This document shows, piece by piece, positions 1 through 39,400 of a stretch of DNA of 64,000 nucleotides. How positions within the stretch are numbered: the first letter of the stretch is position 1; the number at the start of each line of letters is the position of its first letter. A program made the position numbers and the translations under genes. This stretch comes from Candidatus Omnitrophota bacterium (GTDB lineage: Bacteria > Omnitrophota > Gorgyraeia > Zapsychrales > JAKLDJ01): the NCBI GenBank assembly GCA_022703585.1, contig JAKLDJ010000001.1, positions 246,891 to 310,890 on the forward strand. Reading direction: 5' to 3'. Below the pieces are notes generated by a model that saw nothing but the letters and a program-made list of their open reading frames with translations, was not told the origin of the DNA and ran no database searches.

Positions 1-420
1 AAACCGGCAAGTTCTATGCTATGCCGGTTGGTGATTTCATAAAGTCCCGGCCAGGTCCCGATATTCGAAATAACCGCCGTTTTGCCCTTAAATTCTTTAA
101 TGCGCCGGGCTAAATGTTCAGGAGAAGAAAGATCTTCCTGATGCAAATAATAATCTTTTCCCGGAATGAGGCCGTTAAGCCTGAAATTCTCCTGCGCATG
201 AGACAACAATCTAAAGTCATTATCAATCAGATCAAACCTTGCCGCGCCTAACCGCCATGCCGCCAGCGCCAGGATTCCTTCTGCGCAGCCGGCATCAATA
301 ACGCGTTTACCGGCTAAATCACAATGGAGTATCGCCGCGATAGCGGAAGTCGTATAGACGTGATGGCGGTTTAAGGCAAATATGCATAAGTCGAGATCCT
401 GGATAAGAATAACGTTTCGG
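1..420 (-). CDS. SAM-dependent methyltransferase small domain (RsmC/PrmA-like). It is in the -1 frame relative to the giant ORF, has no in-frame start codon, is partial (runs off the window start), and is probably the C-terminal continuation of the giant ORF through a frame disruption.
   Basis: Translation: RNVILIQDLDLCIFALNRHHVYTTSAIAAILHCDLAGKRVIDAGCAEGILALAAWRLGAARFDLIDNDFRLL...IKEFKGKTAVISNIGTWPG. Motif I is VIDAGCAEG. The frame has an in-frame TGA at 469-471 upstream and no ATG/GTG/TTG start between that TGA and the domain. The giant frame ends TAA 372-374 inside this domain. Confidence 0.55.
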
Positions 421-6400: not shown

Positions 6401-9400
6401 CGTGAGTAAGAATTCCGTTTGAAGAGCCGTTGGCAATAACGGTAATCCGCGCCCGAGGCAATCTTTTCCTTAATTCCTTTAGCATCGGAATAAACAGAAC
6501 CGTGTCGCCCATGCCGTCGTGTAAAAAGACAATAACGGTTCGAGCCGAAGAAAAATCCGCCCGCTGCCGGCCCAGGTATATTCTCGTCAGAAACTTAACC
6601 GGATACAGCCCCAAAAGGACTCCTTCTCTTATAAATTTCTTTGCTGTTCTAAGCAAAATTTTTGAGAGTATTTTCACGGCAAGGACAAAGGCGTATCGCG
6701 CCGACCATTGCTGCTCTTCTTTAACAAGCTTCTCGATGCGCCATTCAATAGGAGAAAGATTTCCGTCCGGCATGCGGTATCCGGGCCCCATTAACAAAGT
6801 CAGGATGCTAAAATATCCGGGCAGGCGGCGGGAGTTAATCTTTTCTCGATAGGCTTCAGTTTCTTCATCCGCCGTAATCGGCCTGGGGCCAAAAAACGAC
6901 ATCTCTCCTTTTATAATATTAAAGATTTGCGGCAATTCATCCAGGCCGGTTAAACGTAAAAACTTTCCTATCAGCCCGCTGCGGTTATCTCTCATGGTGC
7001 GTATTTTATAAACCCTAAACATCGTTCCCTGATATCCGACACGTTCCTGGATAAAGAATCCCGGCTTTTTGAAATCGGAAAGCTTAACGGTGGCCCACAA
7101 AATTCCAATCATCGGCAGAATCACGGGCATCGCAATCCACGGAACCACCCTATCAATCAACTTGATATACCAAAGATTATGAATGAGTTTCCCGGCGTCT
7201 CCGCCTTGCGGATTTTTCTGACGATCTTCTGCTATCATCCCCGTCAGGGACAGAAGAACCAATCCCGGCACCAGGCAGCCGAGCCTATCGGATACGGCGG
7301 AATCACCGCGGCCTTCGCCTTCAGTTTCAGTAATCGGTATTAGGCGCAGCCTTCGTTCCAATAACTGCTCAAGCCGGGCTTGTTGTTTTTCGCGCGAATC
7401 GCTGCGGTCATCGCCAAAGCCGCCCCGCACCCGGACAGTAAGATATTCCCACCCGTTCTCAAAATAAAACGGCGTGTAACCATTACGTATTAAGAAATAA
7501 TTGGCCATAAACCAGGCAAGCCGGTGATGGCCGTCGGCGGTATGGGGAGCAAGCGCCCCGCGTTGCTGCCGGCCGCCGGGAGTAACCGTGTCAAATCCGG
7601 CTAACCCGGGAAAAAGCCTGGGGATATAAGTAAAATTGAAATTTAGAAACGCCTGTCCAAACCCGACGGCCTTATAGATACGCGCTGCCACGCGGATAAC
7701 GATTGCGCGATCGGCATACCGCCGATTCGCCCAGTCAACATACGGCATCCCCGCCACCGACTGCAACCGTTGTCCCCGTATCTCAGCGGTATAGGCAGGA
7801 TTTTCTCTGTCGCCTCTGAATAATTCATACATGTCCATGGCATACTCCCATGTCAGCGGCACCCCGGAGGCAATGAGCCGGTTAAAATAATCGATAGCGG
7901 ATTCAAGCCGCGGCATAATATTAGAAGAAGCCAATGCCGCCGCTCGTTCGGGCTCGAGCCGGGCTTGAGCAATCATTCTCGTTGCCGACCCGGCCTCGAT
8001 GAGGCCAAAAAGCCCTAATAAGGCCGAGGCGGGCAGGAAGGCGGCGATCGTATCGTCGTGGCTTGGTTCTTCATCCACAGCTTGCGGCATTACAGATAAC
8101 ACGCTGCCCGAATCAATATCTTGGGTAAACGAGATATACGCATCGAGTGCGGCGCTATAGGCTTCCGCAACAAAACGTTTTTCATCCAAAGACGGATGAT
8201 TCTCTTCTCCGATCGAAAATAGCCGGCTGCGCATGGATTGCGCAACGGCGCTTTTGCCCTGCAGGAATTCTAACAGTGTCAAGGCAGCAGATATTCTCTT
8301 TGCGGCTTTTCTGAAATGCTCATCCTCTGTTTTCTTTTTAATAAAAGTATTGTTCATCCGTTGATGAGATATAATCAACAACCTCGAAATTTCGGCTATA
8401 TTGTTTTGGAATTGGTTTGGCGTACTAACAAATTCTTTACCCCACACAACAAGCTGAGCCTTATTGGTTCGCGTGCGGTGAGAGTTAACAACCCATACCG
8501 GATGGTCTATAATCACACCTTGGGGCACCTCCGGAGTCACATCGCTTTCCAACACTTCCCGGCCTGTTATGATCATACCCATTTTTTGTATTTGCTTTTC
8601 CAGGGTTATATCTTCGGGCAAGGCTAAAACCAGGTGATCTATATCCAAAGCGGTTAAAATTCTCCCCTCAACAACAACCAGAATGTCTAAATCACGAGGG
8701 TGCGCACTATACAGATAGCTTCCGAAAAACGATATATTGACAACTTCGTACCCTAAGGATTGACGAATATATGAGAGTAGGCACGGAACAATCTGCAAGA
8801 GTGATCGAGCCGTTGCAAATACTTTTTCCTGGTGGGGCTTCTTGAGAATTTTAAAAATTCGCATATAATTAAGCTGCTCTAAGAGCAGTTCGTCTGTTGA
8901 TACATCAACATCACGATCGGATAACACCCTCAACGGAAATTCAAATACATAGTCCCGCATCTCGGGAACAGCAAGCTCGGCAATTTTCAATTTATCTGCA
9001 TTAGTCAATTGATTGATTGTGTTACCTTCTGAATAGCTGCGCGGATGATGAAAATCTTCGCTCTCTCCCGCTTGTCGCGGCCCGGCAGCGGACAACTCAC
9101 TCCTTCTTCCATCGCCCTTTTCGTCTCTCGTCATCCCCATGAGTACCATCGGCAGCGCCAGCAGAAAAGCAAACGGCACAAAGGAGCAGGCAAGCTCGCC
9201 GTTGATGTAGGAAGCCACGTCCCGGCCAATCGGCAGGTTAGCACGCACGCGCACCAAATTCCGGAGGTATTCATACGGTACCGGTGCGCTGAAATTATTC
9301 CTAGACCCGATAATACAATCAATGCGCAGGGCTTTCTTATCATACGTTGCTTCGGCTGGGATAATCAGGCCCCTTGGTTCCCGATGGGCAAAAAGCCTGA

Positions 9401-12400
9401 TAAGCCAGGAGAGAGCCGTAGTGTAGTGGCCGTTCGCCCGCGCAAGCACGTCCAGCAATGTTGACGGCCGGCGCAAGACATAACTGCCGTTATGGCTTTG
9501 ATGTTCTAAAATCCATCCCTTAATATTTGCTCCGTCGACAAATACATCGTTGAGGATAACGGCCAGGTGGCTGCCGACGGCACTGCGGGCATCATTCGCC
9601 CAGTTCTTAACACCGAGCACAATCAATCCTCTGATGTCCCGATGGTCCTGGCGCACAACGCGCATCACGCTGCCCCGCGGGTACGCCTGCGAAGAATCGA
9701 TAACGAGCCCCTGATGATTAACAACCACAACATCTGTTAGTCCGGCGTGTAGCGCGCGCAGGAAACGCCGTTCCACTTTTTCACACGCAGGAGACACAAT
9801 CTTGAATAACCCTATATCAACAAGCCACATCTTTTCTGCTTCTGAAAACCGTATGCCATAGATACCTGATTTTCTATATAACGGGATTGGCTGCAGTTGC
9901 ACCGCACCCTGGGCTTTCCCGACGCCATCTCGCACCATCCCCATCATCAGCCCCGTAAAAAAGAACCCGGATCCGAGGAGGCCAAGGGCCGAAACGGACG
10001 TGAACATAAAAGGATTGATAATGCAGCTGACAGATTCGTCGGAGGCAAACGGAACATTTGGCTCAGACAGCCTTTGGACGCCTTTTGAACTATTCAGCTT
10101 GCGAATATGCCTCTTGATTAACAAGACTCTAAGAAAGGTCGGAGAATGAAATAGGTAAGCCCAAAATCCTCTGGATCCTTTGATTATTTTCAGGAATTCG
10201 TACGGATGAGATATATCAAACCCTGCCTCATGCGCAAATTTAATTCCCAAAAAGTCAGCCCTCAACTCAAAATACCATCTGCGTACAACCGAAATAGAAA
10301 CGATGGCGCATCCGATCAAGATCTTATTGACGGAATATTCGTCAAAAAACGTGTTTTCAACAACCGATAAAATCATCAGCTTCATCAGGAAACCGGCAAA
10401 TTCCACGTTCCCCTTTGTGGAAAGCTCGTTTCTCGACTGTCTATCAAGTTTTACTATATGGGCAAAGACCGCGTAAGCCACTCCTTTTGGATCTCGGCTT
10501 TCTAAAGAAACAACATGATGCTTCTCGGTCGTATGGGCAAGTTCGTGCCCCAGGATAAGAGCCCTTGTTGATTGGTGAAGGGTAAAAAATTTATTGTTGA
10601 TAATGATACCCGGCTGACGGAGGAATAATGCCGCGGCATTAACCTTTTTCTGGGAAAATCCTGAAATATTCAACAGGGTGTATTTAAAGCAGTTTAAGCC
10701 CGGATAATGATTGGATGCGGCCCTGATCAGCTCTCCCAACATGTACTTTGTTTCTTGTATTTTGTTCCTCTGCACAGGCACGTAAACAGCTTTGGTGGCG
10801 AATAGATTTCGTGCCCAATATAACCTAATAGCCGCGGAAATAAGACTGATAGCAATCATGGCTTTGGTCAAGTCTCCAAGCCCGGCTGTACTCAACGAGG
10901 TTTTAAAGATGCCAACAACATAGATGAAGAATCCGGCAATCGCCACCGCTCTTATATTGGATATTACGGAAGGCATCACTTTGTTGTGATGAGCCATCCT
11001 GCTGTAAATGATCTTGAATGTTTTCAGGGCCGCCGCTGCCAAGATGACATTTCTCAAGAAGACATCATTCCAAATCAAACCAATCCACGTTCCTCCTGTC
11101 AAAAGCCCGGCCCCTTCGACTGCGCTCAGGGCGAGCCCGATGAGGCCAAAAAGCCCTAATAAGGCCGAGGCGGGCAGGAAGGCGGCGACCGAATCACCGT
11201 CATCACCGGCCGTTGGCGGTAATCGATCTTTACCGGACTTGCCCCCCTGGATAAGGTGCCGTTTGCGCAACTCTGTTAAGGTTTCGCTTCGAGAGCGTTT
11301 AATGAGATAGGTACGAGCAAAAGCCACAACTCCGAGCGTAGCCAAGAAACTCACGAGATATTCAATGACCTGCCGTAATGAACCAGGCGGCTCAACAACG
11401 GCAAGCACCAGGAGGCCGAGGGCAGCCGCAAGAATAACCACGTCACGTTCTGCCCTGATAAGACGCCCTATTTTCACCAGAGACTTGCCCAGGTCAAAAG
11501 TGGCCCATCCCAGGCCGGTAAAAAGAAAGATGAAGATTATTAAATCCGTAAAATCAAGGACTATGCCGCCGCTCCTCATCCAATCGCGCACTCCGCCGAC
11601 AAAGGTAAAATCTAACATACGCGCGAATAAAATACCGCACCCGAGCCCCATCCATAGATGCCATAAACGCTTTTTCACATTGATTAAGTTAGCGAGAAGA
11701 TAGGCAGCCCAAAAGTCTGCCAAAATCGTGCCCAGCTCAAGCATCTGCGCCTTGTCCCCATAGTGAACAAGATTCTCTAACGAGATATTGCCGGTCAGAA
11801 TATCGTAAAAGCGGCCTATGGCTGTTTTTAAATTTGAAACAAGCGAGAAATCCTGCGCACTGGTCATGTCTCCGGGTATCGAATGAAATGTTTTTTCGGG
11901 AATAGTCAGCCAGACATAAATTTTAAAGGTCCAGTCGATCAGGGAAATGGCAATCATGGGAATCATCAGGTGCGGCTTGGGATGCAGGCGGGACAACAAA
12001 CGCTGCGGCGGCCCGTCCGCCAGAAAATCTGTCGAGACAGGTCTCGCCCCGACAGTATGTCGGGGCGGACCGCGACGGGTCATCGCCGCATGGGCCATGC
12101 GATTCTTCGAAACCACTGCCGCCCAGGAAATCCCGACAAGACAAACAATCGTCAGCATAAAAGGCCACAGGATAACGGCCGCAAGCTCAGATTCGTCGAC
12201 GGCCGCGGACCCGGGAGGCGCGAAATACTCCGAGAGATGCACGGCGACCGCGTCATGGAAATTGCGCTGCGCGTTCACGGCACGGGCCCATTTTCTAAAA
12301 CGCTCTGTGTAGTCATCGTATGCCAGAAACATGTCGCGTGCTTCGGGGACAGCGTGAGAAAAAGGCAATCCTTGATGTCCCGTTTCTATACAACTGGAAT

Positions 12401-15400
12401 GTAACTCCAAACGAAAGTGTCGATAATATTCGTAGGAAGGCTCAAAGAAAAACGGCTTTGCAGCGCTGAGCTCAGTCGACACCGTCCCGTAACCGGTAAC
12501 CAAAGACGGCAAGTTGCAGGCGGCAACCAACGCGCTAAAGTCACGAAACGGGATACGATTTAAATTAACCAGTAAAACCCGTCCCATCGGCGTATTCATC
12601 GGCACAATGTAGGGCTTATGTTTGACAAAGCGAAACACAACAATAGGCCTGTCGGCAAGCGGCAACTTCTTAGAATGCGCGGTATTCAAAGCATCGCGTA
12701 CTAAATCAAGGTAGGCAAATACTACGCTCTCATCGTGGGCATGTGGCATCACTAAGCCCCAGCGCGCTTCCCGGATAATATCAACCGCCCCCAAATATTC
12801 ATCGCTCAGCTGCCCCGCAAACATTTCCAGCAATGCCAGCCGTAAGTAAGCGCTGCCGTCGATGGCAATATTATCCATCAAATCTTCGTCAAGAATGGCT
12901 CCGTGTGAACCGCTGGTAACGCCCGGATATAACATGCGAACATTGTCAATCGGTACTGAGTCTGCGTATACAGATAATGACGGCTTTGATATTGCAAAAC
13001 CGTATTCGGGAAACACGATACTCATGGGGGCAACAATACCCTGGCCTGCCAGTTCACGGTAGAGCCTGGCTGTCATTCTATTCCCCGACGCATAGTAAAC
13101 CGTCGGATAGGTGATAACATAATCGCCGATATTTGCAAGGTCAGCGTAGGCTATATACATAATGCCATTCACTTCATTTTCCGGTACCGCCCAATCGATG
13201 TTAGGGAAAAAGCCCGAGAGCAATTGGTAAGAATATTGCTGGATAAATACACGAACTGTCGCGTCAGGGAAACGACGTTTAATGCCGCGCGCCACCATAA
13301 TCGACAGCCCGATATCACCCACGCCATCCGGCAAGACTTCGGGAATAACGTTGACGGCATGATCAAACATCATCCGCTCCAGCCATGCCGGCCAGGCAAG
13401 CGTCTGGGGCGCTTCCAGAACAGAAGCCGACTGCGTCATGCCTGCCAACGGCAGGCAGACTAAAGACCAGAGACTAAAGACAAAATTAAAATCGGCAAAC
13501 GGCAGGAAGGCAGCGAGTGGGGTTCCGTTATCCAACGACTGACCGAAAGGACCAAGCAGTCGTTGTGGAGTGACCGGCGCCTCAGCAAGCTCAACGTATT
13601 CGATGTCCTCATTAAGCCATTTCAAGATCACCTGTGTCATATGTGTATTAATAATAAGATATCCTTTGCGTTTAAGCATCATCAGGCTCTCGCGGTCTTC
13701 GACAGTCACGAATACAGGGGTAAGGATATCGTACATTAGTTGCAAGGATGCAGCCCAGAGTACCCGCTGCAGGACGATTTGTTCCCGCGTCGAGAGCTTG
13801 CCTTCTGCCCAATCGTTAAAAATAGTCTCGCGCAAAGTTTCCTGCGGCGTCACTTCAGCGGCACTCGTGTTATCCAACTCCGAGAGTGAAACGTCAGCGG
13901 GGTTAAACCGTAATACCTCCCCTGCCATTAACCGGCGATACAGCTCCCGAGTGGTATTGTGAATGACGTTCACATCATAAATACTCGACGTACCCATAAC
14001 GCCCTTTCCCCCGTCAATGACCGCCTCATATCCCATGCCGCGCAACACCTCGTCGAGGGCGATACGAGTTAACCAATCGAGCTGTCCGGAATCCAGTTTC
14101 TTGACAAGACCACTGGCGATCTTCGCGGCTTCCATATCATGGCGCTGGCCAATCTTGCCTAAGGCAATAACCAGCGGAATAGTTGCCGGTGAATCAACCG
14201 GCGAGGAACCCAGTGCTTCAAGCAAGGCGCCAATCGCCCTGCGCCCAACCTTGACCAAGGTTTGAATTACGACACGCTGTGAATAATCGGAGACAACGCC
14301 GGTAAGGCTCACCAGACGTGCCAATGCCGACCGTTCTTTGCTAAGGCCAAGCTGACGGATGGCCTTATTACGTATGGAGGGAACAACGTCCGTCAATTGC
14401 TCTTCCAATGTTTCGACCGGGATAACGGCGGTTTCAACATCCATCGTTCGGCGATTATGCACTTTGATAATTTCGATAACCCTGACAAATTCGGGAATAT
14501 CCTCAAAACCGATTGTCTCAATCTTGATAATGTCAACGCGAACACCCAGGCGCTGCGTGATGTGCTCCATCACCTCGAAGGTACCGATCCCCTCGTAGAT
14601 AATCACGTCAATTGTACGATCATAATACGCCTCAAGGATATGTTCACGGGCTTCCGCGTCATGACGTTCAACATCCATATAATCGTAGTTCATGACAAAG
14701 ACGCGGTCAGCCGGAATGCCTAGACCACCACACTGCAATTCTTTCGCGAGATGCGTCTTGCCTGAGGTGCTAGCACCGCCAATAACTAGAATAACCTTGG
14801 TAGGACTGTCAGTAATAATCTGGCGGACCAAACGAATCCCTTCGCGCTGCGTGATGATCTGCTGAACTTCTTGAGTCGAGATTATCGCTTCCTCCGTTTC
14901 CTCGGAAACCCAATTATCCGAAATACAGGTTGAGGATAGCACCAAATGTTTAATGCCCTGATTCTGTTCGTCCATAACAACGTAGCAATCGATAAATTCC
15001 GCTCCCATGGCATCCGCCACTCGACCCCAAAGATTGGCACGCACCGCTTCACTCGAGACCTTGTTGACGGGTTTCAAGGGATCCTTCTGAAGTAAAATTT
15101 CAATAATATCCGCCCGCAGGCGCTCAGCAATCTCGTCACGCACCGCAAAATATTCTCCGTTACCAATAACAAAATTCCTGAGTTGCTCATCATCGAAGAT
15201 ATCGACTATCGCAGCTTTTTTGTCATTGAAGCCCGGAACCATCATGGTAGCAAAATGTTCATATGCCAATAAGTCCTGGCGCAGCCTGCCGATAACATTC
15301 ACCCCTTTTTGGATAAAAAGATCTCCTTGTTCAAATTGCGCCTCGAGTGCTCTGGCAATATAATAAAGGCTTTCGATTTCCGTCATACGAATCTGAACCT

Positions 15401-18400: not shown

Positions 18401-21400
18401 GCGGCAGGTGCTTGGCAACCACATGTGTCAAAAACGCCCTGTTTTCATATTGGATATCAAATCTATACGGCGCAGCGACATCCATCGCTTCCAAAATATC
18501 CCTCTCGCCCTCTCCATCCTCGCCTAGAGATAATTCTTCCAGCGATACCCGATAGGTCGCGCCGGAGAGTATATCTCTAACAATTTCTCTGGACAATCCG
18601 GCGCGCTCGGCAATTTGGGCAATATCAGGATACCGAACACCTTCGGCGGCAAGAGCCGTCTGGGCATTCAGCATCCGGGAGACACAAGACCGGCTTGTAC
18701 GGCTTTCCCACATCTCAAGGCGTGCCTGGTCAATCATGCGGGGCCTTAGTATGCCTATTATCCAGGTCTTGAGACTCGCCCCTCTTGAACTATCAAATTT
18801 TTGAATAGCTTCTAAAACCGCCGCCTGGCCAGCGCTAATGAGTACTTCGAAATCTACTGTGGAATACTGTTCCCGAACAGAAAATGCTGTTTTTCTTATT
18901 ATAGGTAGCCACTCCTCAAGAACTGCACTGTTTTGATCAAATGTTTGTGCGCGCAAGCCGCGACGAAGCCTGGAGCCTTCCGTCCTTTTTACCTTGGGTT
19001 GGCGCGGTTGGCGAAGCTCATACTTACTTCTGCCGATTTTCGGATAGCCTGCCGCGACTAAATCAGCATTCATCTTTTTGCTGTAATAGTGCACGGCACT
19101 TTTATCTATTTTGAGTTCCACCATAATCATTTTGCGAGTCAACGGATTTCTGGGCCAGTCATTGGGGTCGGAAATCCCGTCAAAATGTTGTTTTGCCAAA
19201 GCCAGCAACTGCGGATGAAGCATGTCATATCGGGAACTCCCGGGCTGGCGCGGTTGGCGAGGCTGACCAGGTTCACGCCTGCTTCTGCTAAAGAGAGGAT
19301 AGCCGGCATTAACCAGGTCTTGACCCATCTTGCCCTTATAATATTTATAAATCCATGCCGGAATACTTAAGGCAATCATAATGCTCGCCGGAGTCAACGG
19401 ATTCTTAGGCCAGTCATTGGGGTCGAGAATCGCGTCAAAGTGTTGTTTTGCCAAGGCCAGCAACTGCGGACGAAGCGTGCCATAGCGGGAAGTCCCGGGC
19501 TGACGAGGCCGATAGGGCCCACGCTTGCCTCTGCCGATTTTCGGATAGCCTGCCGCGGCTAAAGCACTATTCATCTTTTTACTGTAGTATTGCACAGAAT
19601 TTCTATTTAATTTGAGCTCCGCCATAATGATTTTCTGAGTCAACGGATTCTTAGGCCAGTCATTGGGATCGGGAATCGCGCCAAAGTGTCGTTTTGCCAA
19701 GGCCATTAATTGAGAACAAAGCGCATCGTATTTTCTTACCCGTGGCTGTCTGGGTTTCGCAAGTTTAACCGGATTCCTTCCAATTTCGGGATAACCTGCC
19801 GATAGTAAATCAATGTTCATCTTTCTTTTATAGTTTCTTATAAAGAATTCATTTACGCTTAAGGAAGACATAATCACTTTCCTGGTCAAGGGGTGATTGG
19901 GCCACTCTGCAGGCAAATGTGAATCAAAATGTTTTCTGGCCAATTCCAAAAGCCGGGGACGAAAGGCATCGTAGACGAGTACCCTGGGCTGGCGCGGTTG
20001 TTGAGGCTGGCGAGACTGGCCGGGCTCACGCCTGCTTGTGCTGATTTTAGGATAGCCTTCTTTCTCTAAAAAGGCCTGTATTTCAGGACGGTGTCCTAAA
20101 TAAATCGATTTGCTGACATTCGGCCAGGACAAAATCATTTTCTTGATTAGAGGATGATTCTCCCGCTCCTGAGGATCAAATTGGTCAAAGTGCTGCCGGA
20201 TACGGTTCTGGATGTCAGGAAAAACAATCATAAAATTTGGCCCTCGAGACCGACCGGTTTTGGGACGGATTTTTCTTGCCGCTGGTTGCTTAGGCTCAGC
20301 GGATCGGTTGCCTCTTTTCCGGGCAATCTCCGGATAATGCTGTTCCGCTAAATAGGCCTGTATCTCCGCTCGATGCCGGACATAAATGCCTGCTCTCATT
20401 TCGGGCCAGGATAAAATCATCATCTTGGTCAGAGGATGATTTTCCCGTTCTTCGGGCGTAAATTGCGCAAAGTATTCGTCAATGCGGCGCTTGATATCAG
20501 GGAAAATAGTACCAAAATGAGGACTGTAGGGACGGCCGGTTTTGGGACGGCTTTTGGACACAACAGAGACTTTTTCTCTCCTGGGCTGAGGTTGTTTTCT
20601 GGGCTGACCGGACTCACGCCTGCTTCTGCCGATTTTCGGATAGCCTGCGTTTTTCAAATCGACGTTCATCCTTTTCTTATAGTTTCGTATGAAAGATTTA
20701 TTTACTCCCAGGGAAGACATAATAATCTTTCCGGTCAAGGGGTGATTAAGCCGCTCTTTTTTATCAGGGATTGCCGCAAAGTGTTTTTGGGCCAACGCCA
20801 GAAGCCGGAGACGGAAGGCATCATAAACGGATATCCTGGACTGGTGTGACCGACGAGTCTGACGCGATTGGCGAAGCTGGGGAAGCTTGCGGTTACTTCT
20901 GCCGACGATGGGGTAACCGGCTGCTATCAAATCAGCGTTCATCTTTCTTTTGTAGTTTCTAATAAAAGATTCGTTTACTCCCAGCAAAGACATGATAATT
21001 TCCTTGGTCAAGGGGTGATTGCGCCATTCCTTTTTATTAGGGATCGCCGCAAAGTATTTCTTAGATAATGCCAGAAGCCGGGGACGGAAGGCATCATAGA
21101 CCAACACTCTGGACTGGCCGGGCCTTGGCTCAGCAACTCCCTTTGACTCAGCGTCTTTCAGGCGGCCCGTCAGAAAGATAGCGGACAGGCAAGATAAGAA
21201 AATAAATGGCGTGAACGGCACGATAAACGCGGCCAGGCTTTCGCTCAGCTGTATCAAGCTTTCTTCGGGCCCGGTCAATGACGATAAAATTTTCTGCCGC
21301 CGCGCGTAAAAATAATTTACGACCCGGCGCTGAACCATCAATGCGGCGACCGGATCAACAATAGAATCATTCAGCCAGAGCGGCTCATCAATATCGCCGA

Positions 21401-24400: not shown

Positions 24401-27400
24401 CGCCGCGCTCGAGTCTTTCGAAGACAACGCTGTAGCGTCCGTGATATGGGGCGCGGGTAAACAGCCGCGTATACCCAAATCGGGTGATGAAAAATTCTAA
24501 CCCCTCAAACAAGCTTAGCGGCTGACTTTGATATCTCCTGCCCAATGCCGTTAAGACGGTTCTAAAGGACTCACGGTCTACTAGCCACCCGGCCGGCGCA
24601 TCAAAACGCCCGAAGGAGAGCCGAACGTCTCTGGCATACCGCCACTGCATCCGGGCTGCCTCGACGGTCTCGGGCTTGCCTTGAATCTGTTCTCGCCAAT
24701 CCATCGCCCCTAATAATGGCGCCAGCGCAAATAGGGTTACAAACGGAACAAACGCAGCCACAGTATCCTCGCCATGAAAACCAGCGCGGCTATCGCTGAT
24801 GGGCAGGCGAATGATAACACGCACCGTATTCGCGAATTCTCTAATTTCGAGTGTTCCGTCGTGAACCTCTACTATTAAACGGCTTAACGGAATTCCAACG
24901 CCTCTCCCATGAGAACCCGTAACAAACCAATCAAAAAGATGCCCCCGCATAAAAGGCGCAATGCGTCCTTTGTTTTCTATTCTTACGGAAACAAAGCGTC
25001 CTTTCCTGCCGGAAATTATTCTGTGCTTAACAGCCACGTCTTCTTTGGAGGCACGCCATGCATTATAGATTATTTCATTAAATACCTTTGAGGGGCCAAG
25101 CCACACTTGCTGTAATCCATCAACACGGGCAGGCCCTTGAAAGGATGTTCGTTCCTTCAGAAATGAGTTAAGGCAAGAAGATAGCACCTCCTGAACATCA
25201 ACGGGATTAACCACTCTTTTTTCAAAACCAAGCAGCCAGCCTATTTGACTGGCGAGTATTGCTAATTCGGCGCTCAATTGTATCCTCTGCGTTGTCAGCT
25301 CTTGAAACTTTCTATCGGTTATCAATGCAAACAGGTCCTTGTTCTCGTCAGAATCAAATCCTTCCGCAACTACTGAACCCCAGCATCCAAACAAACCTTG
25401 GGCGCCTATTCGTATAACTGCCAGATAGTGGCTCATGGATTCTCTGTCTTCCAAAGACGGCCGGGGCCTGTCTAACCGGCCTTCCAGCATCCCGGCATAG
25501 CTATTAAAAAGCGGTGACGAGAAATCGTGGTAAAGCCAGGTATCGGCGATAACCGGCCACAATTTTCTCCAGACATGGACAACTACCTCATCTAAGAGAA
25601 ACTCGGCAAGCGGCCTGTCCATTCTTCCGGCATGTGATTGTGAAATGTCCTGAACGCGCTTAAAGAAAGTAACCGTTAAGCGTTTATCAGCGGAGAGCGA
25701 TCTGAGCATCCCCAGGGCGGTTGATTCCTTTTCGTTTACCATCCCCAAAAGCGGCACAAACATCATTGGTCCCAGGGCAAACGGCACCAGGCAGCCGAGA
25801 TCATCATCCAGCGACGGCTTTTGGGCCACAAAGCCGCTTAAATAGCTGACAAAACCCTCCGTACCGGGAATCGAAACCGCCTGGTCGGCAATAACAGAGA
25901 ATCCGGCATCCAAAAACTCTCCCCTGTAGACTTCAGGGGCTGCATGTACCGTTACCGACAGGATTTTAATTTCTCCTTCCGCAATTTGCCGAATGAGTTC
26001 TTGGGCCGTATAACGGGTTGCGTCAATGCCCTCTCCTTTTACGCCGCGCAATACCATCATCGGATACATTTGATGATCTTCCAGGATTGCCTCAAAATCT
26101 TTAGATACGATAATACCTGTTTCAACCAGCTGCCGGAGAACCTGCCTGTGGAGGGCATAGCTTTTGGTATACCACCGGCCGCGATTCTCCGTCGGCATAA
26201 CACGCCGATAGTCCAGGAATGATACAAGTCCGCCCGGCTTTACGATACGGAATATCTCGCTTAAGATCCGGCGGCGTTTAGAAAGCAAGGGAATCATATT
26301 CAAGGCGCGATGGAACACCGCCGCGTCCAATACGCCTTCCGGCAAATAGGCCTCTTCGGCTAAATCCGCCTGCTGATAAGAAAGGGCCGGCTGAGGTGAA
26401 TTCTTGAGATGCATCAAAGCCACAATCGCGGCCGTCGCCTCCTGATAATTAAGGGATTGTGCTAACGCATTTGAACGGGAGGCGGCCACATACCGGTGTT
26501 CTCTCTCCAGACCAAGAACATTAAATCCTTGCCCATACAACCATTCACTGATTTGACCCGCACCCGAACCGACATCGGCAACAACCATCCTGTCATTTTG
26601 ATTCAGTTCCTGCCGCGCCTGACTTTGAAGTATCCGCGCCAAAACCACGGGATACGTATGCATATAACTGACGTCTTCTCTTCCGCTAAAGTAACCCCAA
26701 TTTGTCAAAATCCGCTGTTGGTTGACGCCCGCTACTAACCTGGCAGCATGCCTTGTTTTCATCAGGCGCGGGTCTCGTATTATTCTTGATTGTGAAATAC
26801 CTTCAAGCCTAGGCATAACATTGACATCGTCTTGTTCATCCTCTACGGCAGCCAGGGAAGTTAAGACCAAAGACCAGAGACCAAAGACTAGGTTTAAATC
26901 GGCGACGAGCATAAACGCGCCGAGTGCTTCAGCTGCCTCCGGAGATGCGGATAAGAGCTTTTCACCATCTGCCCAGTGTGCATTGCGGAGCATTTCTTCC
27001 AAAACAGCCTGCGTTGCTTTGGCTGCCGCCGGGTTTTTGCTGACCCGCATAAACTGCGACTCTTTTCCCGAAAAGGCCCTGAGTATGTCCATAAGAGTCT
27101 GCGAATTGACATCTACCCCTATTCCCAGTGGTGTTTCCCCGGGCTCCCGTTCGAACCCACCAAAAACCAATGCGGCAACGCGCGGTTCTGAGCCCGACTC
27201 AACGATTACCAGAGGCGAACCCGAATCACCGGGAATAGTCTCAACCCGATCGGAGCAAATGCTCCCAGAATCCCTGTGAAGATATCCCGCTGATACCCTG
27301 TTTTCCCCGGTCAATACCCTATTTCTACCGCTTACGAGAATTGCCAATGTGTTATTTCTCCAGGAAAAATCAAAAGGCATAGGCTGAAGGCTGCCAGCCA

Positions 27401-30400: not shown

Positions 30401-33400
30401 CTCGATTAGCGCCAAACAAAGCAGCAAGCTTGGGGCAACTCGGCAGCCCGTCGTACCCTGCCGCCCGACAGATGGGCAATATTGTATCTATGATTGTTTG
30501 TACCGGATCTTGAGAAAATCGCGCAGCCCGTTGTAACCGTTCATTGTCATCCGTAGCGACAATGTCAAGCGCTTCATCCCAATGAGGTTTAAAGACCTTC
30601 CGCACCCCGCCAAAGCGAATGCAGACAATCCGCCATTCCGGTATCTTTAAGGCAGCCGGGTCTTTAAACATATCTCTCAGGTATCCAACAATAGCTTCAG
30701 CAAGATTATCTTCGGAGGGTACCAATCCCCGTTCGGCTAACAGGGTAATAGTGTCAACCCAATATGGCGCAATATTGTTTCTATCAATGCCAAACCAACC
30801 GGAGACGACAGTCTGCCCGGGAACACCCTCATCGGGATGCTCGCGCATCCAGAGTTCTATTTCATCAGCAATCGCCGTGACGGGATTGCCGTGTTCGCGA
30901 TAGGCAAGGTCATACCGCGCCAAACGCCGCAACGCCACCGGACCTTCCGCAATCACGAGCTCCATCGCGCCCGACCAATACAATTGAGAAACCGCTGTCT
31001 GGCTCATGCCTATGCGCTCTGCCATTTCGCGATGCAATGGCAGGGAATCGCGGTATTCCTTCAAGATAATATCGGCAATGAGCCGGGAGGCATTCCCTTC
31101 TTTCGTTGCTAAGGCCATGGCTATTCGCTGTAGCGTTGCCGGATCTCGGGTATACGAACGGCTTTCCTGTGCTACGATAGAAAGCGCTTGTCGATAACGC
31201 GACCAATAATCGCTATTGGGCATCCGCAATCCGAAACGCCGCGCAACCTCTAGGCCAGAGAGTACGCGCGATTGATTACAGTTATGCTGAAATTCATGTA
31301 ATATCTCAAGTGCAATTGCCCGGGCTCGGTAGTCAGAAAGCGTAAACCGGGCAATTTGCTGAACGCGAAAATCAGAGCTAAGAACAATGAGGGCTTCGAC
31401 TGCCTGGGTATAATAGGGGCCTATATGAGACGCTGGCATTCCGAGGTCTCGCGCTATTTTTGACGGCAAGGGAAGGCGTGCATACCTTCGAGAATTCTCC
31501 ACAGCGTCTTGCAATGCATAGTAAATACGAACGGTTGGGGTTCGATGCTCTTCACCTAAAAACAACAAATCAAAATAATAATCAACATCAATTACTGCTT
31601 CGGCTTGATACTCCGGTATCTCAAACGGGCTTTGATACCCTTCACCCGAGTGAAACGGAAAACGTTCATTAACGAACTGGCAGGGCTTAGCGCTTCGCTC
31701 CTGACTTTTTAAGAATACCTCCAGGCTGGTGATACCTAGTGCCCGAAGCTGCGGATGCGAACGCAATAATATAGGATGTATCCTGCTGGTGAACTGGGTA
31801 GAAACTGCTGATTCTGTTACCGCAGGAGTTCGCCGCCCGGCCAATACCTTAAGCGACACACCGTCAAATTTAAATTCCATAAAGTCATTAATCAGTTCCT
31901 CGGGAATCCGGTATCGACGCAATATATCCCGTATAGCACTACGGATACGCGCCAAATCATAGCCAGCCATCTCGATAAATCTATGAGCATTTAAATCTTT
32001 TACATTAACTCGTATTTCGTCCTCTCCGCCGCTTCCGGCTACCGCCGCCTTCTCCGCCAGGCCTTCAAGAGAAACAGTCCGCGAAGCTTTTGAAAGCGTA
32101 ACTATCCCGTTGCGCTTTTTCCCAGTGATTCCTTGCGCCCGCAGATAGTCGATGATAACGGTGTCAATAATATTCCTGAAGGCAAGTGCGTATAATTTCT
32201 TTATTCCTCTCACGCCCGGCACAAAAGGCTCTGTACTGCGGACAGTCGTGTAGCTGATAGCTTCTTGATAAACACGCAATGCCAATTCCTGGTATTCGTC
32301 CGAATCAATGCCATAAAAAGCATACGACAACAATCTATTGGCAATAGCCCCGCGAAGGCGCGGCACCATAATATTGAGGAGGGCCTCATAGGAATATTCT
32401 TCACCTTCATAAATCAGTTCCAATAAGCGCGCCGCCTTCTGGTCTGCATCGTCTATTGCCAGCGCTTGTTCTGCGGCACGACGATCCTGGTGCGTCGGCT
32501 GCCATATACGAGAGGAAGAACAAGGCACAGCGGTTATATTTAAAATTTTCCGCATTTTGTCAATGCCGCCGTAAATCGCAATCGCGCTTGCAAAACGTCC
32601 GCCCATGACCTGGGTATCAAAGCTCTCAAGCGAAATACCTGCTTTGATCAGTTCCAGGCGCATATACGCCGCGGCAATCTCAACGGGAATATAGCGCCAG
32701 GGAATAAATTCGTTATAACGCTCACAGCGCGCGATATAATCCAGCCAAAACTTAAAGAGTGTTGCTGGCCGCGCATCCGGCCGGGATAACGCGCACTGCA
32801 GCCGATATAATGCCTCTATGAGGTATTCGGATTCGGTTTCTTTACATGAAAGCAAGAGACCTTTCAGTGTTTTGTTATTAAACGCCTCAATTGGCTTGTT
32901 AATAAAATCATTAACCGTTAAATCCCATACCGTTTTCTTGCCGGGCTCGGCCAGGAGCATATCGACAAACGCTTTTAGAACAGCAAGTCTCTGCTTACGC
33001 GGCAGCGCGTGAATATCTTGCCAGAAATTCATGTAGCCTTTGGGCGGAGAGGTTTTAAAGCGCTCGATATAATCCTGTGCTGAAACTTCAGCGCGCTGCG
33101 CCGAGACCATCCCGAACAGACAGAATACGCTTAAATCCAAGAAGGGCAGAAATGCGAAAAGCTCATAACCGCCGTCATTAAAATTGACATACGCGTGCGT
33201 GTAGCGCCGGGCCAAATCAACAATAGAACGACGGATTAACGCCTGGAGTTCCTCGGAGGAAATGCTTTGAGAAACCAGCGGCCCGGCCCATTCACTCAAT
33301 AAATCCTGATTAAAAATACAATCTTCGACAAAGCTTTCCATTTGTCGGCGGAAGTCAGCCGGTAAATCCGGAGCCATGGTCGCGACAATCTGCTTGGTGT

Positions 33401-36400
33401 CGATAACGCCGGTATCAAACCACGCTGCAATTTCCTTTCTGCAATCATCACGCGCCGCGCCCAATAACGGTAAAACCGAGAATAAGAACAGCGGCAGCAC
33501 AAAGCAACCAACGCTCTCGGGCCCGCGCTCATCAGCGGCAGACGGTACTGTTTTGTTTAACTCCAAAATAAGAGAATGGATATTCGGGGTTTCACTCGCG
33601 GTCTCAAGACGCAAAACATCCGGCTTTTGCGGCCATGAAAGGGGAACCAATTTCTCGCTATCGCCGACCGCAAGCGCCAGGGTGCGATAAAAAGCAATTT
33701 CACTATCGGCGCTAACACTGCCGGTTACCATTAAATAAGAAATACGTTCAACCAGAGATGATTTGATGATTCTTGACGATGATATCCCGGGGTGGCTGCG
33801 AGGCAGCAAATCTGCCTGCCAGTCAACAACCTGACTGATGATCTTGTTATCTCGTAAGGACATATCGATAGAGGGATTAAACTCTATTTTCATCAGGCAG
33901 GCTATGCCCTCCAATGCCCCGCCGATGGCATACAGCGCCCGGTGGCCTTCTCCGGGGAACAATCGATTAAGTACCTCCCTGTTTTCGGACTTGGCATTGA
34001 GGATAGCACTGACGATAATAACCTGTCTGCCGGCCTCGACATAAGTCTGTTCGCCTAAGGAGAAGATAAATCCGGTCGCCGAATCAGTTGCGGCGCGCGG
34101 TTGTTCTACAACGGGCTCATCAACCTTGGGCTCATCGGCCGCGGATACCGGCGCCGGTGACTCACTATCGTCTTTAGGATCAACATCAAAAATGGCGGGA
34201 AGGCGCAACTCAATCAACACGTGGTCCGACCACGACTGGAATGTGGCGTTTCCGTCGATAAAACTATTCAGCAAAATATCTGTCCCCTGAGCCAAAGTCT
34301 CAAGCCTCAATGTGAATATCTTTCCTTGAGACGATGATAGGTTATAGAAAATCGAAATACCTAATATGCTTTTTGCTGAGCCCGGATAGTTGTCAATGGT
34401 TATGACGGCCTTATATGCATTACGCAGAATTACAGTAGAAACAAATTTCGCGATAATCGCCTGCAGCGCCTTTCGATAGGTATCATCAAGGCATTGAATA
34501 AGCACCGGCCGGTGCCACATAACATCCCAAGAGCATTTGTCGCTTGCGTCACGGCTAATATCCTCGAGCATTTCAATAAGGTCAAAGGCTAACTTTCCAC
34601 TGCTATCCACAACCTGCAATTGTTCTCTATCGGGCTCATCGACTACGTGCGTGACCATAAGCGACTTATCGTTTCGCGGCTTGCCTTCAGAAGCGATAGG
34701 AAGGTAAAATTCAACCATCGCGCCGTCTTTAAGAGGGAATAACACCGCACTGCCGCCAAACGTACGCGTGAGAAATTGATGAGCGTCTTCGGCAAACGAC
34801 GACAATAGGCTCGTCAGAAACTGCCCGTCGGGCGAGGCCAAGTCATAAGAAACAGAGATAGAAACCGGAACACTTTCTATCAGTTCGGTGTCGGTTTTAA
34901 CGGCGACGGTGGCGCGCTCCGCGTAAAATAGCGTCTTTGAAGAAATAAATCCGGCAATATAGGCTTGAAGCTCATCCCAGTACTTTAAATCCCCGCATTC
35001 AATAAACACCGGCTGATCCCAGGCAATATCCCAACGGCATTTGTCGTCCGCGATGCGATGAATATTGCGTAACATCTCAGTAAGATTAAACGCCGACTCC
35101 TCACCATCATCCATCCGGCCGACAAGAAACGGGATGCCGATAAACAGCAGATAACAGCCCAAGGCATTATCTTCTGACCTTGCCGTTTTCTTCCGACGCG
35201 ATTGCGTACCCTTATCTACCCTGCCGCGCTCGGAAACAGGCACGGAGGTACCGGCCGCAGCAGCCATGGATTTGGATGCGACAGCCGGCTCTTCAGCCTC
35301 GACCAATTGTGCCAATGCTCGGTCCGTGCTCAACATACTGAACATCGCGCTTACGGCTTTAATGCTGTAACCACTTTGCACGCTAGCCTCTTTGATGTCA
35401 AAGCCATCAACCAGCAAAGGCAACACGGCACGCGCCACCGCGCGGTGCTCCTTCGGCAAACGGCGAGCAACCTGCTGAATCAACGCCCATGTTTCTTCAA
35501 ATTCGTACGATTGCTCCGGGTCTTCGAAGGAGCTGCGTCCAACGATAATATTAAAGCCTCTCTCTGAGGGTGCTTCAATTCGCTGTTTAGTCATTCCATG
35601 ATGCGCAAAAGATTCATTTTTAGGATAGTGCTTTTTCCTCGGGATGACGGCTATCTGCACGCGCCAATCCGGATGTGCGGATAAAATCGGCAATACTTTT
35701 GGATAATGAAAATCAATACCCTGCCGGGTCACGCCAAAGAGGGCCGCGATTTCGGGTTGCGCCGGGAAGGAATGAACGCGGCTGGGGTCCTGGACATATT
35801 TTTCATTCAAAAGCTCTATCAGGGCATTGGCGATGGTTTGCTCCGGAGACACAAAATAGTCAATGGCACGACGTATCCGCAGATTATCGCCCGCGCGTTG
35901 CCTTAGGGCCGTGACGATCTCTGCCCGGTGACGATGTAATGTTCGCAAACTGATTCCAAAAAGACGGACGCTGGTATTCGATTCCCACGTCTTATGCAAT
36001 GTCCGCGCAACGGGTTTGTCCTGGAGAGCAGTAAAGATAATGTCTACAGTCTTTTCTAAGTCAAATTTCCTCCATGCCTTTATCGGAGAGAGTTTTTCCT
36101 GCTCTGCTGCCGGTTTAACGGCGCCAAGGAGAGAAATAAAGAACAGCCCCGTCCATAGCCCCAGGGTGCAGAGCAAATCTTCTTTGAAATCATCGGGCGC
36201 TATTTGTTTAATATTTAACGACACCTGCGGTTTAAGCGGTACTAAGAATACCGTCACCCTGCCCTCTGTATTTCTCGCAACAACAATATGCGGGGCATGA
36301 TAACCGCCTTCGCGCAAATCATAATAATGCCTGTTCCCTCCCTGATCCTGCCGCGCCCGCAACCAATCAGCATCAGCATCAGCAATCGGCCGGGCACCGA

Positions 36401-39400
36401 ATTTATCACGATAATAAGGAACGCGCGACGGTATTGGATCCAGGGTCAGGTACTCGATGGCATAGGTCTCTTTCAAGGCCTCAATGAGTGCGGTTTGCAT
36501 AATTTCATCGAGATTAATAAGCTTGCCCGCACTGCCACGGTACGCGGGAGCAATATACAGGTCATGAACATCAGTTTCGCGCAAGTCGCCAAACGCCCAA
36601 CCGAAACAAATATCACGGCCCTGCATTGCCTTGATGGCACCAGGAGTAAAATCAACCGGCATAACTACCCGCTGAAGATGCGGCAGCACGTGATCATCCT
36701 GAGGACTTACGACTGCGTCAATAAATCCTATATGCCGCTTGGTATCCAGGTCAAAGATATCTAGCAGAAAACAGTGGCGCTGGATAGACTCCTGATCACG
36801 GCGCAGCGTAAAGAATAGAGAAACCGCTCCTGCGCGGTAGATGGCATAGCCCTTATCCATTAACTCGCGGAAGCTGAATATGCCGATATCGACCGGAGAC
36901 ACTTTCTTCATATCCGATGCGCCCGCATCCACCATCCCTATAATCGGCAGCCAGGCCAAAGGCAGCAAGAACACGCAATGCACATCGGTATCCGTATCAG
37001 ACGTCAGCGGTCCGTCAGCGGCTACGTCCCGCAAAACCTGCGCGCGCAACGCCAGAGCCCGCTCGTAGAGGTCGCGAAAGAGCGCCGTTTCCAGAAAATA
37101 TTGTTTCAGCTGTTCGATGACAACAAATGACTCTCTAAAATACCGATACAAAATTTCTTGGGATTTCGTAAGGTTATTACTGCGACGTTTTGTCTCAATG
37201 ATATCTCTGACAACTTCTTCGACGCTCGGTTGCGACTGATCCCATCGATACGACCGCGTGCAGTCAAACATGGCATCGACCCAATCAAGCACATGAATAA
37301 TATGAAGCGCCATGTTCAGAGCCCGTCGAAGACTGCGCGGCAGCAGCTGATATTCCGGCAATGATGAGACGCGATCAGGCGTGTGGTGATACGAAACGAT
37401 TAATTTAAGAGCCCGCAGCATGTTGATGTATTTCAAAATGGCATCCTGGTCTTGGGCGTCGAGCTTAAAATAGCCGTTATCGAGCAGTATCTGTTGGAGA
37501 TTAAGCAGCCCCGGCGCACGCTCCTCCGCATTAAAAATCTTGATACTGAGCCACCCGAGCTCTTGGGAGAAATCGTCGTTAAAGATCATCTGCAGATACC
37601 GGTAGAGCCGCCGCGGATTAAGGCTAAACAAAAACCACGATTCTTGCGCATGCTGCTGCACAATCACAAGCTCGCTGGCAGTCAACCTGCGCGGCTGGCG
37701 AATTAATTCGGCGATGGTAACCTGCCGCACATCCGTGCCGTCATGAATGGCAAACCGGCGCGGCGAATCCTTGCCTAAATCATGCAGTTCGGCCGCGGAG
37801 CACAAGAGCCGCTGTTCCTCGGGAGAAAACATTTCCTGCGGCATGATAAATCGGCGTATGATTTCGATAGTCTTGCCACGGATAACCTTGCCCGGCCGCA
37901 AATACAAAACATCACGCACGCCTTTTATTTCGCGCTCAATAGCAGTAATATCAGCCAAATGGACGGCATGCGCCAGCTCTTCCTCTAACAATGTAAGCAC
38001 ATCGCGCACAAAAGATTGCTGCCGGTCGGTTAGCGGTGCGCCGTCTGTTAATGACCGTTCAATATCTGTAATGAGATCATTCCAGCCATTGCCTACCAAT
38101 GCCGCTTCCTGGCTTACCCGCCAGGCATGGTGCTGATTGTATACGTCACAATAAAGCGACAAATGCGAGGCAGTGAAAGACCCTCCGATAAACTGCAAAA
38201 GTTGATGTTCCCACGCAAGTTGCTGGAGCACGGCCCTGAAGTACTGGTCATCGCTCAGTGCCTCCGGATATTGAGTCGTCAGCCTCTCAATTGCCTTGAG
38301 GATACTCGCAAACTTCCGCTCTGTTTCCTGAACATCGGGCACCTGCACCATCATTCCGGTTAGCGGCAGGAAGGATGGAGACCACAGACTAAAGACCAGA
38401 GACCAAAGACTAAAAAGATTGGATACATCAGCCAACGGCAGCAGGATGCCGTTAAGCTCATCGCTGTCAGCCCTGGCAACAACACCATAGGCAAAGACGA
38501 CTCCGCTGGAAACAAATCTTAAAATCTGAACCTCTCCAGCCGGAACTAAACCTGCGTCTTTGAAGAATTCTTCAACGGTTTGGTTTTGAAAGAGCCGTTT
38601 TTCTCTATTTAATCTCTCGACGATAAGATCGTTTTCAGGGGAAATATATTTCCCGACTTTAATAACGGGAGAATCCGGATGGTGCATCAGGACAACGCAC
38701 AGGCCACCGGGTTTAAGGACTCTACGAATAGACTTAAGGGCCTTTTGGGGAGCGGCACAGTATTCAATGGTAAATTTCACCACAACAATATCCTGGGACC
38801 GGCTTTCAATCCGAGAAAGCGTTTCGGCGTTATCAACAATGACCTGGATCTTCGGATACGCTCTTATCCCAAGACGAACCACATCAACTAAATCAACCGC
38901 TGTTATCGCCGAGCCTCGGAATTCCCTTAAAAGACGTCTGGACAACTGCAAGGCCCCTGCCCCAACTTCGAGGATATTTAAAGGCTGTGCCCTATCCGAA
39001 GCAGAAGTTTCCTGACGGGTGCGAATGTTGTCGACAACCCAGTCGTTGAGCATATTTTCATTCAACGGACCAAAAGAAGAATAAGAAAGGCCTCCTAACT
39101 TGTTTTCCCAATATTCGCGCCAGGCCTCGGCCATAGCCGCCTCTTCTTCGACGGCGGCCCGGCCAAAAAAGGCTAGAAGGCTGAATAATCCTATAAATAA
39201 ATCAAAAGGCAAGGCAAAGACAAACGAGTGAAATTCGGCAACGGCGGTTTTTTCGGAAAGGAAAGAAAAGATTGCCCCAACTTTTTCTGAATGCATTCCT
39301 GCATATCTCAAGGATAAGTTGGGACTGTTTTGCTTTCCTTGAATAAGCTTTTTAAGAAAAGCAAAAACCGCCATACCGAAGGAGCTATCCCCCACCAGCC

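Follow-up and report, generated by a model that had tools for sequence, protein, structure and literature searches.

What is a tandem repeat with a unit of seven bases, which is not a multiple of three, doing inside the coding sequence of a giant gene? Genes of at least 60 kb are a recent puzzle with regard to their assembly, the maintenance of their reading frame and the processing of their products. The question is raised by a 64,000-nt stretch of a Candidatus Omnitrophota genome (contig JAKLDJ010000001.1, positions 246,891–310,890; hereafter the window), the whole of which can be read in one minus-strand frame without a stop (21,332 codons, with both ends open), compared with 648–1401 stops in the remaining five frames. 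A first-pass annotation had placed five tracts of the heptanucleotide AGACCAR in an open reading frame (ORF) of 60 kb; the giant ORF stands, but its size was understated, as the frame spans the complete window. With a probability of roughly 0.55, we interpret the tracts as short, partly decayed, in-frame heptanucleotide microsatellites, which are tolerated in the hydrophobic spacers of one subfamily of inter-module linkers.

The five tracts are present where the annotation had located them. Tandem Repeats Finder resolved 3.7–5.9 units in each, and a search for three consecutive AGACCAR units with up to two mismatches gave 10 overlapping matches, all on the plus strand and all inside these five places, compared with 0 matches in 100 dinucleotide-preserving shuffles. 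Among the short periods, only period 7 builds such arrays in the window: a lag-match scan (threshold 14/16) identified three regions at lag 7 and a single region at lag 10 and at lag 14, with the remaining lags between 4 and 15 giving no region. The tracts are built of imperfect units. The longest perfect run (GGTCTTT ×3 followed by GG, 23 nt) lies in tract E, the sole tract with three perfect units, and two identical adjacent units occur in tracts B and D each, but none in A and C. Eight codons upstream of tract E, a degenerate copy of the motif encodes FWSL and may be a remnant of an older repeat block.

Read on the coding strand, the unit is YTGGTCT and three units amount to 21 nt, for example TTG GTC TTT GGT CTT TGG TCT, which is translated to LVFGLWS. 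Because 7 and 3 have no common factor, the same cyclic heptapeptide results in every frame. In-frame translation of all five tracts confirmed the proposal that they encode the Trp-rich part of a linker, and the repeat, translated cyclically, yields VF[S/G]LWSLV; the peptide follows from the repeat and not the reverse. An entirely hydrophobic or small cyclic peptide is given by only 2.9–5.1% of all heptamers. The repeat is free of stop codons in all six frames, and its reverse strand reads RPKTKDQ, a peptide absent from the whole window protein. The shared core codons are GTC TTT RGT CTY TGG TCT YTR GTY, from which tract D differs at two codons.

The relationship between repeat and peptide was further analyzed by resampling each tract peptide 20,000 times with synonymous codons according to the gene's own codon usage. 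In every tract, the number of lag-7 matches exceeded that of 98.5–99.94% of the resampled sequences. The observed values were 24/35 for tract A (reached by 0.065% of resamplings), 18/23 for B (1.2%), 16/23 for C (1.5%), 21/32 for D (0.7%) and 19/23 for E (0.06%). The periodicity is therefore a property of the DNA. A comparison of the five linkers with each other points in the same direction. At identical residues, the core shares 36/49 codons (0.73), whereas the flanks share 13/36 upstream and 7/25 downstream (about 0.3), which is inside the range given by codon usage alone (same-codon probability of 0.18–0.28 for V, S, G and L, and 0.56 for F). Thus, relative to its flanks, the core is of more recent origin or under stronger constraint.

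As a next step, we placed the tracts in the context of the linkers along the protein. A hydropathy scan with a 19-residue window revealed 56 peaks above 1.6, and 21 of these align to a common pattern consisting of a run that is acidic or rich in Gly, x-L-G-A-F-(L)-P, some ten hydrophobic residues and then L-x-G-M. Altogether, roughly 20–40 hydrophobic linkers share the form [acidic/Gly]-x-LGAF-P...LP-LxG-M, with Thr or Val and acidic residues as the usual continuation, and the linker is more reminiscent of a recurring signal for processing or anchoring than of a collection of unrelated membrane helices. When the 21 linkers are aligned, the tract falls where the generic linkers have a gap and is hence an insertion into the generic linker. 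The span that the GAF Phe and the xGM Gly delimit measures 11–18 residues (median 14) in 15 generic linkers, compared with 22 residues in linkers B, C and D and 29 in linker A. The added length of about seven residues, or about 14 in linker A, corresponds to one and two 21-nt periods, respectively. The insertion also occupies a shared position: four of the five tract linkers contain a conserved Ala-Asp, replaced by Ala-Gly in D, and the repeat begins four codons after this dipeptide in B, C, D and E, and with one extra codon in A. The modules flanking the five tract linkers show no paralogy. Consequently, the linker variant has spread without its modules, and a duplication of module plus linker was ruled out. 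The suggestion that the tracts are footprints of one ancestral linker is thereby largely supported, as the five linkers form one subfamily with a common repeat position. For linker C, AlphaFold2 modelled a single helix covering residues 6–41 from the alignment of the five linkers, at a moderate mean predicted local distance difference test (pLDDT) score of 73. Elsewhere in the gene, two generic linkers (around 'AAFLPASALLGLFGLI') are 95% identical over 62 nt in surroundings that are not alike, which suggests recent copying or gene conversion between linkers.

Table 1 Positions of the tracts, linkers and further features. Numbers refer to the window unless another locus is named; units are written on the coding strand of the window gene.
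Feature	Position	Strand	Tandem Repeats Finder (period 7)	Sequence or product	Remark
Host gene	1–64000 (codons at 3–63998)	-			mosaic of enzyme modules joined by hydrophobic segments of ~20–30 residues
Tract A	38378–38412	-	38379–38414, 5.1 copies, 79% matches	TAGTCTT TGGTCTC TGGTCTT TAGTCTG TGGTCTC; peptide LFSLWSLVFSLWS	~5 recognisable units after one degenerate unit; LFSLWS-LVFSLWS, two 21-nt periods
Tract B	26863–26890	-	26863–26888, 3.7 copies, 89% matches	TAGTCTT TGGTCTC TGGTCTT TGGTCTT; peptide LVFGLWSLVL	
Tract C	13457–13484	-	13457–13485, 4.1 copies, 77% matches	TTGTCTT TAGTCTC TGGTCTT TAGTCTG; peptide FVFSLWSLVC	
Tract D	4461–4498	-	4447–4488, 5.9 copies, 77% matches	CTGGTCT TAGTTT TGGTCTT TAGTCTT TGGCCTT TGGCCTT; product LSLVFSLWPLAL; peptide LVFSLWPLAL	variant unit
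Tract E	3262–3288	-	3261–3288, 4.1 copies, 95% matches	GGTCTTT ×3, then GGTTTTG; peptide AVFGLWSLVL	
Linker A	38331–38474 (aa 8508–8555)	-		RADSDELNGILLPLADVSNLFSLWSLVFSLWSPSFLPLTGMMVQVPDV	hydrophobic inter-module segment with tract A
Linker B	26823–26942 (aa 12352–12391)	-		PEAAEALGAFMLVADLNLVFGLWSLVLTSLAAVEDEQDDV	
Linker C	13413–13538 (aa 16820–16861)	-		SLDNGTPLAAFLPFADFNFVFSLWSLVCLPLAGMTQSASVLE	
Linker D	4413–4538 (aa 19820–19861)	-		ASDAGRLGAFVPLAGLSLVFSLWPLALVPLAGIVGGEDRGSN	ends where the homologues of the next module start
Linker E	3213–3350 (aa 20216–20261)	-		QDEMSCVILFFTFWSLADLSAVFGLWSLVLLPASAFAGLLSLVEAG	
Degenerate motif copy	3303–3314			TTC TGG TCG CTG (FWSL)	within FFTFWSLAD
Generic linker pair	7993–8054 (aa 18648–18668); 11135–11195 (aa 17601–17621)				
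Stretch lacking Pfam matches	31404–38402 (aa 8532–10865)				
Diverged tandem repeats	19023–21121 (aa ~14290–14990)				upstream of a sigma-70 module
L031 tracts	L031: 170–205; 3980–4015; 5843–5878	sense			five AGACCAA-type units each, at three module junctions
P0014	L121: 463–15858				multi-module protein
P0153	L179: 50–22813				multi-module protein

An alternative order of cause would be that VF[S/G]LWSLV is selected at the protein level, as a membrane-helix recognition or packing motif or as a processing site, and that the DNA periodicity was inherited from a recent ancestor. Several observations fit this view. Variation of R and Y within the unit is found only at synonymous Leu positions (CTY, YTR), the Trp and Phe residues are invariant and Phe is encoded by TTT in 6/6 copies, from which we infer, also under the microsatellite explanation, that the tracts are translated and under peptide-level constraint. 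The hydrophobic context is likewise conserved and predicted to be helical, and the generic parts of the linkers are conserved with scrambled codons, placing the linkers under protein-level selection, just as the SLDNGG linkers of the related multi-module protein P0014 (locus L121) are conserved while their synonymous codons are freely scrambled. The tracts themselves depart from this behavior: their periodicity goes beyond what the peptide needs, and synonymous sites are saturated in the flanks but not in the core, so that the supposed recent ancestry would be confined to about 25 nt. In addition, the motif occurs in only 5 of the roughly 20–40 linkers of the gene, searching 5.8 billion proteins with a profile of the five tract linkers gave no similar sequence, and an unrelated giant gene described below (L031) reads the same DNA unit on the other strand as a wholly different, hydrophilic peptide. 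We therefore consider selection for the peptide an unlikely origin of the repeat.

Returning to the microsatellite explanation, its individual steps can be outlined as follows. A block of three units would add seven residues to a hydrophobic spacer, leaving both the frame and the hydrophobic character undisturbed, and would presumably be tolerated for this reason. One such insertion may have arisen in one linker via slippage or duplication. From there, it would have been copied to four other linkers, all of which carry it at the same position, without the adjoining modules and probably by gene conversion or recombination between linkers. Linker A, which is longer by a further 21 nt, could have gained them by duplication. 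Changes by a single unit would truncate the protein and are presumably purged by selection.

We searched widely for a relative carrying these linkers and obtained no match in the protein, metagenome and viral collections. This includes a word-indexed protein search with aa 8300–8900, metagenome scans with the module between tracts D and E and with a linker-specific DNA pattern, and searches of viral contigs; an exhaustive HMMER search with aa 19200–20400 returned only module-level homologues of at most 63% identity, none of them with these linkers. Searching the literature for bacterial polyproteins and for the linker motif gave nothing relevant. Giant genes of the Omnitrophota have been described as 'Archaeovorins' (West-Roberts et al. 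2023, bioRxiv 10.1101/2023.11.21.568195) and as 'multi-enzyme metabolic clusters' (Nielsen and Lui 2026, bioRxiv 10.64898/2026.06.07.730766). As published, they combine many enzyme families with many predicted membrane helices and have mostly unique sequences, and the lack of close relatives is in agreement with the latter. Term searches of the two preprints for the word 'linker' gave no match, and tandem nucleotide repeats in coding sequences were scanned only in bulk (Nielsen and Lui 2026, bioRxiv 10.64898/2026.06.07.730766).

The annotation had also warned that gain or loss of a unit would shift the frame of everything downstream. Our simulations agree: gain or loss of one unit leads to a stop 7–45 codons after the tract, while the frame stays open upon loss of three units. 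This raises the question of whether the tracts act as contingency loci, in which slipped-strand changes by single heptamers switch downstream translation on and off and leave a truncated giant protein in a subpopulation. The unit length and the nearby stops would allow it, and continuing turnover of the arrays would fit the high codon-level conservation of the core. With 3.7–5.9 units, the tracts also reach the cut-off of three units that a survey of Neisseria applied to 6–10-nt repeats, which is a screening threshold only (PMC5084427). A precedent for a frame-shifting coding repeat is the pentanucleotide 5'-CTTCT-3' of the Neisseria opacity (opa) genes, as stated in the passage of this survey that refers to Stern et al. 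1986 (PMC5084427). The tracts of the window share with opa a coding repeat whose unit is not a multiple of three, so that a change by one unit shifts the downstream frame. The opa repeat is located in the signal-peptide coding region, where it encodes the hydrophobic core of the signal peptide in any frame, and its long, perfect tracts are found near the start of a small gene, at the 5' end, with demonstrated variation in length. In contrast, each tract of the window has 3–6 imperfect units and lies deep within a gene that spans at least 64 kb, 8,500–20,200 codons into the visible ORF and not near a start. The tracts are not homogeneous in the manner of contingency loci, as three perfect units are present in one tract only and two tracts have no identical adjacent units. 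Moreover, five independent kill sites in one gene are unlike known contingency loci, and all length differences between the paralogous tracts are in-frame. For tracts this short, imperfect and deep in the gene, phase variation looks decidedly unlikely. The tracts are a latent frameshift liability and not a demonstrated switch.

Next, we examined the modules between the linkers. Pfam families in the host frame include Maf, Dus, NUDIX, several S-adenosylmethionine-dependent methyltransferases, CheR, three sigma-70 domains, a trypsin-like peptidase, an M48 peptidase, a sugar transferase (Bac_transf), a GT9 heptosyltransferase and HATPase_c. The gene fits the giant-gene class, whose ORFs exceed 10,000 codons and contain many different enzyme families in a row. 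It has over 20,000 codons and shares with the published Omnitrophota genes the methyltransferases, NUDIX, glycosyltransferases, peptidases and HATPase_c, and its many hydrophobic segments may correspond to the membrane helices predicted for these genes. The HMMER search with aa 19200–20400 gave 5,985 matches, which are grouped in three separate modules with edges at the linkers. Among the matches listed, none has its best-matching stretch across a linker, and many are proteins that stand alone and align with a single module from their own N-terminus on. The gene therefore looks like a string of complete, formerly independent proteins. Linker E, for example, is bordered by a FabD-like module on one side and by a module 55% identical to part of P0014 on the other. 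The best module homologues include one that carries the label Candidatus Omnitrophota and one with the label Candidatus Eisenbacteria. No marker gene is present in the window.

To see where else the unit occurs, the core pattern was scanned exactly in one genome per species, yielding at least 120 loci. Among the matches listed (119 ordinary loci from many phyla), nearly all consist of pure (TTGGTCT)n arrays within short open frames. Such arrays are common in bacterial genome bins; judged by record title, frequent groups are Acidobacteriota and Bacteroidota, and likewise Pyrinomonadaceae, Blastocatellia and Vicinamibacterales. Period 7 dominates the tandem repeats of these loci (at least 476 arrays versus at most 120 for any other period), and arrays of other heptamers often adjoin the (AGACCAA)n arrays. 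In 51/133 arrays, an ORF starting with ATG and encoding at least 120 aa begins within 100 nt downstream in the AGACCAA sense, at a median distance of approximately 14 nt, compared with only 8/133 in the opposite sense. In viral contigs, the AGACCAA-type unit was found at 9 loci versus 11, 11 and 25 for composition-matched controls; as this count is no higher than the controls, we make no claim of an unusual abundance of the unit.

One locus stands apart from these ordinary matches. L031, from another Candidatus Omnitrophota metagenome-assembled genome (contig JAQUQN010000006.1), is one stop-free frame of 2,666 codons in 8 kb with methyltransferase, CheR, GNAT, HAD and MTS domains, and its protein shows no similarity to the window protein. 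Its three tracts read ADHRPKTIDQRPS (twice, with closely similar flanks) and ADQRPKTKDQRPS; two of them fall between Pfam domains. At a fourth junction, the downstream part of the motif is present and the array absent. As with the window tracts, the array resembles an addition to a linker of the generic type. A protein search with L031 returned two distant module homologues, neither with heptamer linkers. Three junction tracts within 8 kb are unlikely to be an accident; the prior probability of the match is uncertain because the locus was found by searching for this very unit.

Altogether, these data bring a nucleic-acid explanation into play, in which arrays from the leaders of start codons were captured by gene fusion or still act at the junctions, where they would serve as sites of binding, as leaders of internal initiation or as short patches of homology that let linkers recombine in frame. 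The preference of AGACCAA arrays for positions upstream of start codons (51 versus 8 of 133) parallels that of the TAACTGA repeats (PMC4679880), and the unrelated L031 carries its tracts in the sense orientation. Further points in its favor are that the window modules have free-standing homologues which start and end at linkers, that the core is conserved at synonymous sites and that four of the five tracts share the same codon register, by which recombination between these four would keep the frame. The absence of stops in all six frames would suit a spacer as well, but 50.4% of all heptamers share this property. Other results are harder to accommodate. All window tracts are antisense to the gene and hence cannot be sense-strand leaders, no plus-strand ORF starts after them, and the five are homologous insertions in a conserved peptide linker, not five independent relics. 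The viral counts do not exceed their controls, and the discovery of L031 by way of the unit itself counts here as well. Overall, a leader or seam origin appears rather unlikely to us.

Additional searches for a nucleic-acid element in the window were negative. There was no Rfam family match in the window and no signal of RNA structure at the tracts (z-scores of -1.6 to +1.3); promoter- or terminator-like sites were absent from tracts C, D and E (positions 1–15000 scanned), with overall counts at the level of shuffled sequences. Antisense genes led by the tracts were ruled out, as there is no consistent plus-strand ORF.

The more specific proposal that AGACCAA/TTGGTCT arrays are seam elements of giant-gene construction, carried into or still operating at module junctions, is unlikely in our estimation. 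If true, the arrays would serve as stop-free read-through spacers in either orientation and as in-register homology patches for the in-frame gain, loss and shuffling of whole modules, and the window tracts (antisense, hydrophobic) and L031 tracts (sense, hydrophilic) would be two outcomes of one process.

Even for the microsatellite explanation that we prefer, some points remain unfavorable. Synonymous sites in the core are much better conserved than in the flanks, which a passively decaying microsatellite does not predict and which requires recent gene conversion over approximately 25 nt, turnover within the arrays or selection at the nucleotide level. The recurrence of the AGACCAA heptamer in the L031 linkers in the opposite orientation hints at a role at the DNA level or a common source. 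In addition, the five codon tests would not count as independent of each other if the tracts had a common ancestor. The conservation of core codons and the recurrence in L031 are two results that a simple microsatellite picture leaves unexplained and by which a DNA-level role is conceivable. In either case, some spacers between modules in at least two unrelated giant genes come from a 7-base DNA repeat and not from an ordinary evolved peptide. As merely tolerated coding microsatellites, the tracts would be a small curiosity, yet one that marks the likeliest sites of frameshift errors and is useful for judging assemblies; as relics of leader repeats or as patches for recombination, they would be informative on the way in which giant genes arise from ordinary ones.

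Heptanucleotide repeats of comparable build are known from other bacteria. Those of heterocystous cyanobacteria, the STRR units, were reportedly described by Mazel et al. in 1990 as CCCCAGT, TTGGTCA and CAACAGT, and the TTGGTCT unit is one base off the reported STRR2 unit. By analogy, the YTGGTCT tracts would be the same kind of element as these heptamer direct repeats. TAACTGA repeats of Beggiatoaceae, Cyanobacteria and Bacteroidetes occupy the position expected for a ribosome-binding site upstream of start codons and differ between close strains by indels in steps of 7 nt (MacGregor 2015, PMC4679880). What the window tracts have in common with both is the arrangement of tandem 7-nt direct repeats in short sets of few copies. 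However, STRR and TAACTGA repeats are mostly intergenic and oriented forward to the next gene, whereas the window tracts are translated inside a reading frame, lie antisense to the usual orientation of the unit and are limited to net changes of 21 nt. A similar comparison applies to in-frame coding micro- and minisatellites in general, where a DNA repeat is located in a permissive protein segment and only frame-preserving length changes survive. The tracts differ by their 7-nt unit, with a frame-preserving step of three units, and by reading as one and the same hydrophobic heptapeptide in all frames, a property of only about 3–5% of heptamers.

Related multi-module proteins each have a repeated linker of their own. 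SLDNGG followed by basic residues is present in 15 copies in P0014 and 24 in P0153, while P0035 has many R[S/A]E[A/T]R-like motifs. Linker C of the window starts with SLDNG, and at both ends of the module that P0014 shares with the window protein (55% identity), SLDNGG stands where the window has a hydrophobic linker. P0014 (5,131 aa, from an NCBI genome bin) is 100% identical to the last 5108 residues of P0153 (7,587 aa, from a JGI contig, beginning 50 nt from the contig end). The two were hence rejected as a pair of orthologs: they are one sequence assembled twice, show no variation for this reason, and P0014 is a truncated or mis-started form of the longer gene.

Two further regions of the host gene deserve mention. 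A stretch of approximately 2,300 consecutive codons has no Pfam match at E ≤ 0.001, within which the frame stays open and the hydrophobic linkers go on. Finally, upstream of a sigma-70 module, the ORF contains a block of diverged tandem repeats with a pairwise DNA identity of 75–94% over 60–220 nt at offsets of approximately 250–500 nt.

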